In this document: piece by piece, positions 2,602-3,488 of the stretch | Numbering within the stretch: position 1 is the first letter of the stretch | Layout of the letters: every line of letters starts with the position of its first letter | Origin: a virus | Lineage: Duplodnaviria > Heunggongvirae > Uroviricota > Caudoviricetes | Direction: 5' to 3' (one strand) | Length of the DNA stretch: 3,488 bases | IMG/VR virus record: IMGVR_UViG_2695420687_000014 | Made by a program: the position numbers and the translations under genes | The notes under the pieces: generated by a model | Databases searched by the model: none | What the model saw: the letters and a program-made list of their open reading frames with translations, nothing else | What the model was told of the DNA's origin: nothing

Positions 2602-3488
2602 TTTCCGCCTCCAGCATCCCGTCCCCGTTTGGCAGCCAGCGTCCAGCCAGATGCATGCGCATCCCCCGGTTTATCGGCGGTCATACTGTTGCAGTGCCAC
2701 AGCGAGCCCCCCCACGTCACCGTATCGCCGGGGTGGTAGGTTTCACCGGCTCTGAACACTCCGCGGTAGAGCATCACCGGCAGGGAAAATGTTTTTTCCG
2801 TACACTGGCCACTGCTCTGCCGGATCACCACAGAGAACAACCGCTCACCCGTCATACTGACGTCAATATCCGCCACCCCGTCAACCAGGCATTCCCATCC
2901 CCGCATCCCGTGCGTTTTTTCATACGCCCGCCAGAGTCCTCCAAGGTGTGTGGCATACGTGCCCCGGGGAAAGGATTTTTGATCGTCAATGGCGGGGAGC
3001 ACTTCCAGTGCCGTGGCATCACGCCCGTCCTGCGGAGCCGGCAGGGCATTCACCGCCTCCAGAACCGCCTTCCGCAGAACATCGGGATCGTAGTCACGAC
3101 CATCACGCGGAACGGGAATATGGCTTACAGCCTCTTTCACCATCTGCTCAAGCATCGGACGCACATCATCGGGGGTGATACTTTTGCCGTCCGCCGGTAC
3201 CGGAATTCTCCCGACCGCATCATTCACCGCCTGCTTCAGTACTTCCGGATCGTAATCACGACCATCGCGGGGAGCTGGAATATGGCCCACTGCCTCCGCC
3301 ACCATCTGCTCAAGCATCGGACGCACATCATCGGGGGTGATACTTTTGCCGTCCGCCGGTACCGGAATATTCGCAACCGCATCATTCACCGCCTGCTGCA
3401 GTACATCCGGATCATAATCACGACCATCACGCGGTACCGAAATGGCCCCCACAGCGTCATCCACCATCGCCTGCAGAACCGGACGCAC
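2598..3488 (-). CDS. Repeat-containing phage structural protein of unknown function (C-terminal 296 codons; 5' end beyond the window)
   Basis: Open frame runs from the window edge at 3488 to TGA at 2600-2598. The leading M in the ORF track is a GTG at the edge, not a real start. Residues 1-170 are tandem repeats alternating IPVPADGKSITPDDVRPMLEQMVAEAVGH and IPAPRDGRDYDPEVLKQAVNDAVGR type units. Residues 171-296 form a non-repetitive Cys/Trp-containing domain. Translationally coupled to the connector gene. Function not recognised. Confidence 0.8.
   Translation of the reverse strand: MRPVLQAMVDDAVGAISVPRDGRDYDPDVLQQAVNDAVANIPVPADGKSITPDDVRPMLEQMVAEAVGHIPAPRDGRDYDPEVLKQAVNDAVGRIPVPADGKSITPDDVRPMLEQMVKEAVSHIPVPRDGRDYDPDVLRKAVLEAVNALPAPQDGRDATALEVLPAIDDQKSFPRGTYATHLGGLWRAYEKTHGMRGWECLVDGVADIDVSMTGERLFSVVIRQSSGQCTEKTFSLPVMLYRGVFRAGETYHPGDTVTWGGSLWHCNSMTADKPGDAHASGWTLAAKRGRDAGGGK
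2979..3488 (-). repeat. In-frame tandem coding repeats, 162-nt (54-aa) period, each built from two ~27-aa half-units; array continues past the window edge
   Basis: DNA 3138-3206 is identical to 3300-3368 (69 nt, offset 162); flanking repeat sequence is similar but diverged. At protein level there are about 6.5 half-units in the window, the last one (LPAPQDGRDATALEVLPAIDDQ) degenerate. Confidence 0.85.

Follow-up and report, generated by a model that had tools for sequence, protein, structure and literature searches.

The 3,488-nucleotide stretch of DNA analysed here (the window), taken from IMG/VR virus record IMGVR_UViG_2695420687_000014 (Caudoviricetes), carries the head-to-tail joining part of a lambda-like siphophage, with all of its real genes on the minus strand. 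At its upper end lies the 3' part of a gene for a tandem-repeat protein, which we call X, the name used here for the repeat protein encoded directly after the portal gene. Gene X, part of the virion module, is intact and translated separately, and its product is neither a piece of the portal protein nor a capsid protein. Its features in the window are the following:

2598..3488, minus strand: gene X, 3' 891 nt (open reading frame (ORF) of 296 codons plus stop, the first 57 codons lying beyond the window)
3045..3488, minus strand: repeat array, a partial unit followed by B-A-B-A-B, strongly acidic (Tandem Repeats Finder; unit positions)
2601..3044, minus strand: conserved C-terminal domain, starting with the degenerate unit LPAPQDGRDA and continuing as a beta-rich globular part (invariant alignment columns; AlphaFold2, AF2)
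2619..2771, minus strand: subdomain at the C-terminus of X resembling carbohydrate-binding module family 5/12 (CBM5/12-like, chitin-binding-type)
2598-2600, minus strand: stop codon of X, ending the 296-aa C-terminal fragment (translation)
2598..2601, minus strand: ATGA overlap of the X stop and the connector start, a sign of translational coupling (sequence and ORF coordinates)

Tandem Repeats Finder reports a 162-nt period in 2.5 copies (84% matches, score 596) at 3064-3468, a score far above chance; the other tandem repeat in the window (2102-2132, score 41) is trivial. The encoded fragment consists, in order, of a partial helix (aa 1-15), units B, A, B, A and B, a degenerate unit (LPAPQDGRDATALE) after the last B, and the globular domain to which that unit leads. 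Unit B has 25 aa (ISVPRDGRDYDPDVLQQAVNDAVAN; consensus IPxPRDGRDYDPxVLxxAVxxAVxx) and unit A 29 aa (IPVPADGKSITPDDVRPMLEQMVAEAVGH; consensus IPVPADGKSITPDDVRPMLEQMVxEAVxH). The two are mutually related, each being made of a Pro-rich turn (IPxPxDGxD) and an amphipathic helix, and the spacer that they form is very acidic (pI 4.3). The original prediction, made by a model from the letters of the window, had described alternating 29-aa and 25-aa units, and both the minus-strand translation and the 162-nt period bear this description out. It had also held that the array extends beyond the window: the protein does run off the end, but the array barely does so, for the 57 missing codons comprise a 52-aa N-terminal helix and only five residues of the first unit, as read from P0015 (353 aa, 93% identical) and L003 (98% identical DNA), two full-length relatives in the length class of the window protein.

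X is tripartite, with a conserved N-terminal helix of ~52 aa, a length-variable acidic spacer, and a conserved C-terminal beta domain. Copy number, which the prediction had proposed to compare across related prophages, indeed varies: the E. coli-type proteins come in exact 54-aa steps of 245, 299, 353, 407, 461, 515 and 569 aa, corresponding to spacers of 0 to 6 units, and the window protein falls in the 353-aa class. X has 1163 close homologues. Searching 1.84 billion representatives with a profile retrieved 1359 family clusters (defined at 50% identity) at E ≤ 1e-30 and 4141 at E ≤ 1e-10. Family-wide, lengths range from 214 to 1237 aa, the shortest members being the N-terminal helix and C-domain alone. 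The middle region is an expandable spacer; some relatives build it from a ~20-aa unit (PEPEPLPDI plus helix), and in others true collagen-type Gly-X-Y runs stand in place of the units or alternate with them. At least four consecutive Gly-X-Y triplets are present in 64 of 149 representatives (43%), one of which has 57, and the Pfam Collagen model (PF01391) scores 38.4 bits in P0217. These collagen-bearing members likewise are encoded just after the portal gene, and a few members of the family run on past the C-domain into motifs typical of phage fibres.

The C-terminal domain is the best-conserved part of the family (invariant columns of alignment A1), is kept in all 149 top representatives, and is predicted by AF2 to be beta-rich, with a predicted local distance difference test score (pLDDT) of 85-91. 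In the model, its last 45-55 residues superpose on CBM5/12 domains (2rts, 2d49, ChiB 1e15) with a root-mean-square deviation of 1.7-3 Å and a probability of 0.98-1.0, and they have the small three-stranded beta fold with exposed aromatic residues that defines CBM_5_12; X carries the aromatic-rich motif YxPGDxVxWxGSxWxC. Unlike those domains, the modelled one is preceded by an extra beta-sandwich without a match, and the PF02839 scores (19.4 bits for the window protein, 26.0 for P0033 and 25.0 for P0217) all fall just below the gathering cut-off of 26.2. Among predicted viral structures, the whole modelled C-domain comes nearest to the C-terminal parts of entries named 'collagen triple helix repeat' and 'tail protein' (BFVD A0A6J5LGH8 and A0A6J7XHF2; Foldseek E 1e-5 to 1e-3). 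Such collagen-repeat fibre proteins share Gly-X-Y runs with many members of the X family; they are mostly annotated as tail proteins and themselves are uncharacterised, and in E. coli-type X, which adjoins the portal gene and not a tail-tip module, helix-turn units take the place of collagen.

The DNA of the window is matched in 1293 of 5426 complete E. coli genomes, in prophages 93-98% identical, and in 91 phage records, most of them long-tailed phages converting to Shiga toxin (Stx) types Stx1a, Stx2a and Stx2c. From the annotated relatives JLK-2012, PPyecE_EH1910, NMBU-W12E19, Sakai Sp10, BP-4795, 2851 and YYZ-2008 the gene order reads TerS-TerL-protease::capsid-small ORF-portal-X-gp6 connector. 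This order is kept in prophages of gamma-, beta- and alphaproteobacteria and recurs in 46 species-representative genomes, among them Enterobacterales, Pseudomonas, Marinobacter, Variovorax, Delftia, Pseudoduganella, Paraburkholderia, Rhizobium, Mesorhizobium, Phyllobacterium and others. X lies directly 3' of the portal gene in all 46 loci with both genes, except for one with a 3.2-kb insertion. In 46 of 46 species-level relatives the two are separate ORFs and X keeps its own conserved ATG; most of these loci show an ATGA or TGATG overlap of the two, as is typical of translationally coupled genes. The portal gene product (450 aa, PF04860) is homologous to the HK97 portal (8cez), and the small ORF before it encodes 73 aa. 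Three genes upstream of X lies the capsid gene, whose product of 645 aa is a protease::capsid fusion (PF04586 and PF05065). The prediction was right that X is not an HK97-fold capsid protein, since it has no PF05065 match and the capsid protein is the fusion upstream; its placement of the gene in the slot of a capsid or decoration gene was wrong, because X directly follows the portal gene, which it usually overlaps by ATGA, while the capsid fusion lies upstream of the portal gene. In L001 (11797-13734) that fusion joins a prohead protease (S78), a segment of coiled coil and a capsid domain of the HK97 type, and its position between TerL and portal is an unusual gene order; no solved homologue of it was found by sequence.

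In E. coli-type phages a tract of G residues is situated 20 nt before the portal stop codon (L003, ~11640-11665, minus strand; L134, 2476-2503; L260, 28803-28830). With five residues (G5) the genes are split, the portal C-terminus reading ...AMFRGILRK* and the ATG of X overlapping the portal stop; with six (G6) the portal frame continues into X (...AMFRGDTEKMTERE...), giving an ORF of 859-861 aa. The counts in IMG/VR are one for G4, 95 for G5, 41 for G6 and none for G7, and the in-frame portal::X fusion accordingly occurs in ~30% of E. coli-type loci. The only common lengths, G5 and G6, are the two that leave X translatable, and X is intact in both classes. Several flanking haplotypes that have diverged from one another carry G6, and in two cases the 560-nt flanks of a G6 tract are identical to those of a G5 copy. 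Phages 2851 and YYZ-2008 are G6, while JLK-2012, BP-4795, Sakai Sp10 and the closest relative of the window are G5; infectious phages are known for both states. In Sp10, which has the split form, the morphogenesis genes are all intact and transfer to K-12 has been demonstrated (PMC2669165). A second, independent in-frame portal::X fusion, the 1237-aa P0164, comes from an unrelated lineage and was seen in two samples. That the gene might be a degraded remnant, an alternative admitted by the prediction, is contradicted by its integrity in both tract classes and by its conserved ATG in all 46 relatives.

Two genes are the ancestral and majority state, and the label 'portal protein' for X is an annotation artefact. 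X alone matches neither PF04860 nor TIGR01537 (portal_HK97), and the portal profile takes in only residues 45-388 of the 859-aa fusion protein of phage 2851, the portal domain ending at ~390. The phrog_2271 'portal' profile, with its 859 positions, covers both portal and X, and the Prokaryotic Genome Annotation Pipeline (PGAP) labels the split pair a frameshifted pseudogene ('phage portal protein, frameshifted'; L003, 10559-12981). The fused ORFs seeded the PHROG 'portal' profile and the NCBI names, and PGAP therefore calls the split form frameshifted. In Klebsiella, Enterobacter, Cronobacter and others, X proteins that stand alone go by the name 'phage portal protein' or 'phage gp6-like head-tail connector protein' but match the profile of neither.

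Other identities for X were rejected. Phage_Mu_F (PF04233) gave no match at E ≤ 1 in six family members. QatB (PF28083, of the defence system QatABCD) rested on a 'faint' precomputed match, with no PADLOC match and in the context of a phage head-neck module, and weak matches to TetR_C_35, FliG_N and DUF4244 are helix noise. NCBIfam holds no model for X. No homologue of solved structure was found for X, the A1 profile, the capsid fusion or the connector, the structure search turning up nothing beyond helical repeats of designed proteins and a stretch of 30 residues that matched the Anabaena contractile injection system (CIS) protein All3316. A well-characterised family with the repeats as an annotated domain, which the prediction had named as evidence that would count against it, was not found in Pfam, NCBIfam or solved structures, and no study of X came up in a literature search that covered portal frameshifts of Stx phages, the phages PAJU2 and BP-4795, and locus tags.

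The explanation we prefer, and to which we give about an even chance, is that X is a trimeric fibre with its N-terminus anchored at the portal vertex or neck, forming an external whisker or head fibre; we infer for it a trimeric state, presence in the virion, an external location and a ligand, whereas the structure of the gene, the repeat polymorphism, the synteny, the coupling and fusion to portal, the collagen-type segments of relatives and the fold of the C-terminus are shown by the analysis. The conserved ends and variable acidic middle, the collagen segments of relatives, the fibre-type C-domain and the gene position all fit a trimeric fibre, to which the Gly-X-Y runs in the spacers of the representatives point in particular. 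In this mechanism the ~52-aa N-terminal helix would be the anchor, and the 54-aa double units (Pro-rich turn and helix, twice) would be a spacer whose copy number sets the length of the stalk and would shift by unequal recombination between the 162-nt DNA repeats. The C-terminal beta domain would nucleate folding and trimerisation, in the manner of the T4 fibritin foldon, or else bind a glycan. The fibre would project outwards from an attachment site at the portal vertex or neck, or close to it, a location suggested by the synthesis of X together with the portal (ATGA) and by its gene lying between portal and neck genes. The elongated modular stalk of the original prediction remains the most plausible reading of the array, given the 54-aa steps in copy number, the Gly-X-Y relatives and the likeness of the C-domain to collagen-repeat fibres.

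Two known appendages are comparable. T4 fibritin (Wac) has an N-terminal anchor, a segmented helical stalk and a C-terminal folding domain (foldon), and is encoded with neck genes. X shares with these neck whiskers the plan of an anchor, a stalk of variable segments and a conserved C-terminal end, a likeness of general design and not a computed match; no sequence or fold similarity between them was detected, and X differs in its Pro-rich or collagen-type linkers, its CBM5/12-like end, its occurrence in lambda-like siphophages and its coupling to the portal gene. Like the phi29 head fibre gp8.5, X would be a dispensable-looking trimeric fibre with a helical stalk, encoded in the head module; no similarity was detected here either, and X follows the portal gene, not the capsid gene.

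Several observations weigh against a fibre. No virion proteomics or structure was found for any member of the family. Gly-X-Y runs are absent from the window protein and from 118 of 120 close homologues, which have single DG.D motifs only. AF2, run with a 29-sequence alignment, predicted a long, confident N-terminal helix and did not resolve the repeat region, drawn as low-confidence helix-loop units (pLDDT<50); the architecture of the stalk is therefore not established, and we make no claim for solenoid or coiled-coil packing. The C-domain is highly conserved in hosts as far apart as E. coli and Rhizobium, which would not be expected of a receptor binder specific to one host. Lastly, the C-terminus of an HK97-type portal lies in the crown, inside the head, and portal::X fusions would therefore put the N-terminus of X inside the capsid. 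The fusions may simply be tolerable and say little about the native site, translation of X still starting at its own ATG: by estimate, a portal tail with X on it would fill <1% of the volume of the capsid and so could be accommodated.

This last point leads to the strongest competitor, which we consider a good deal less likely than a fibre: X would be an internal minor head protein on the portal crown, the positional analogue of SPP1 gp7 and Mu gpF, possibly released or ejected at infection, its CBM5/12-like domain then binding periplasmic peptidoglycan. Those proteins too are encoded right after the portal, and the linkage of X is implied by the coupling and by the occasional fusion. The constant position of X behind the portal gene with translational coupling, the two independent in-frame fusions (G6 phages 2851 and YYZ-2008; P0164) to a portal C-terminus that in the HK97 type is internal, and a C-domain whose conservation across distant hosts would suit a conserved ligand such as peptidoglycan, all speak for it. 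X has no PF04233 match, however, even at E ≤ 1, and instead has repeats and a beta/CBM-like domain; its relatives carry fibre modules and collagen-type triple-helix segments, and a strongly acidic spacer would be unfavourable beside packed DNA. In phages, collagen-type triple helices are known only from external fibres and are not known inside capsids. The fusions themselves, with so small an estimated share of the capsid volume, might be tolerable off the native site.

Improbable in our view is an assembly-only factor, for instance a chaperone of the portal or a nucleator resembling a scaffold, which the prohead protease would remove so that mature virions lack it. X does occupy the post-portal slot of the protease and scaffold genes of lambda and HK97, and it is helical, acidic and coupled to portal synthesis; yet the capsid fusion has its own coiled-coil, delta-like segment, a range of 214-1237 aa beside near-identical capsid proteins is unlike a size-determining scaffold, and neither a conserved beta/CBM-like domain nor collagen runs are scaffold traits. 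The PGAP view, that a single large portal protein has X as its C-terminal half and that a frameshift has made a pseudogene of the split form in the window's lineage, draws on the PGAP label, the 859-position PHROG profile and the fused ORFs, and can practically be dismissed in the face of two ORFs with a conserved ATG in all 46 relatives, the G5 majority (95 vs 41), a portal domain (PF04860, TIGR01537) that stops near residue 390, the lack of any portal match in X, its integrity in both classes, and the split form of the transferable phage Sp10 (PMC2669165).

The G5/G6 tract might be a heritable switch between a free, displayed fibre and an X covalently tethered to the portal C-terminus, working by slippage as at a contingency locus and/or by ribosomal slippage on GGG_G, an idea that we regard as unlikely. 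Programmed ribosomal frameshifting at the tract is speculation only: the predicted folding of the 126 nt that surround the junction is no more stable than that of shuffled sequence (z -0.32), and the portal/X junction has no canonical X_XXY_YYZ heptamer. Were the switch real, lysogen lineages would give particles that have the fibre, lack it or contain a few portal::X subunits, and the portal protein would be the first known to be phase-variable or extended by frameshifting.

The X family is large and has no curated model, its usual names being 'portal protein', 'gp6-like connector' and 'frameshifted pseudogene'. Recognising X as a separate, length-variable fibre would correct thousands of annotations, along with those calls of prophage integrity that score the split form as a portal defect. 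X then would be a hitherto unexamined virion component of Stx phages that might bind glycans, and the natural polymorphism of the portal fusion offers a way to ask where in the particle a portal-adjacent protein resides.

Downstream of X, the window holds the following genes of the neck and tail:

2275..2601, minus strand: gp6-like head-tail connector (adaptor) gene, downstream of X (PF05135, E 1.9e-7)
1915..2265, minus strand: head closure/completion protein gene, neck module (PF05521, E 1.9e-17)
1472..1918, minus strand: HK97 gp10-like protein gene
1131..1475, minus strand: tail completion protein gene
348..1064, minus strand: major tail protein gene, with a C-terminal Ig-like domain
1..342, minus strand: tail assembly chaperone gene

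The first of these is the head-tail connector that the prediction had expected next to the repeat protein. Neck genes overlap by ATGA at 2598-2601 (X/connector), 1915-1918 (head closure/gp10-like) and 1472-1475 (gp10-like/tail completion), and this series of overlaps indicates a probable chain of translationally coupled genes. In some relatives the neck module includes, a few genes downstream of X, a sialyltransferase-like (Glyco_transf_29) gene, with the following positions:

L264, 8030-8617: sialyltransferase-like gene
L137, 7780-8349: sialyltransferase-like gene (PAJU2 gp10)

The 66-nt gap between the tail completion and major tail protein genes contains a GC-rich hairpin (CCCGC-CGCGT-GCGGG) followed by TTTTTT at 1087-1101 (minus strand), which resembles a terminator, or else an element that stabilises mRNA, just upstream of the tail gene with the highest expression. 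A second candidate lies at 1128-1144. Residues ~149-233 of the major tail protein (window 348-620, minus strand) match Ig-like domains (Ig_2, I-set, Ig_3; E ~1e-7 to 1e-8), by prediction another surface-exposed accessory domain of the same particle. The tail assembly chaperone ORF encodes 113 aa in the window vs 124 aa in relatives, and the best matches in E. coli genomes all begin at window position 39, which suggests that positions 1-38 mark the edge of a mosaic segment or that the 3' end is a variant one, close to where the G/GT frameshift region is expected.
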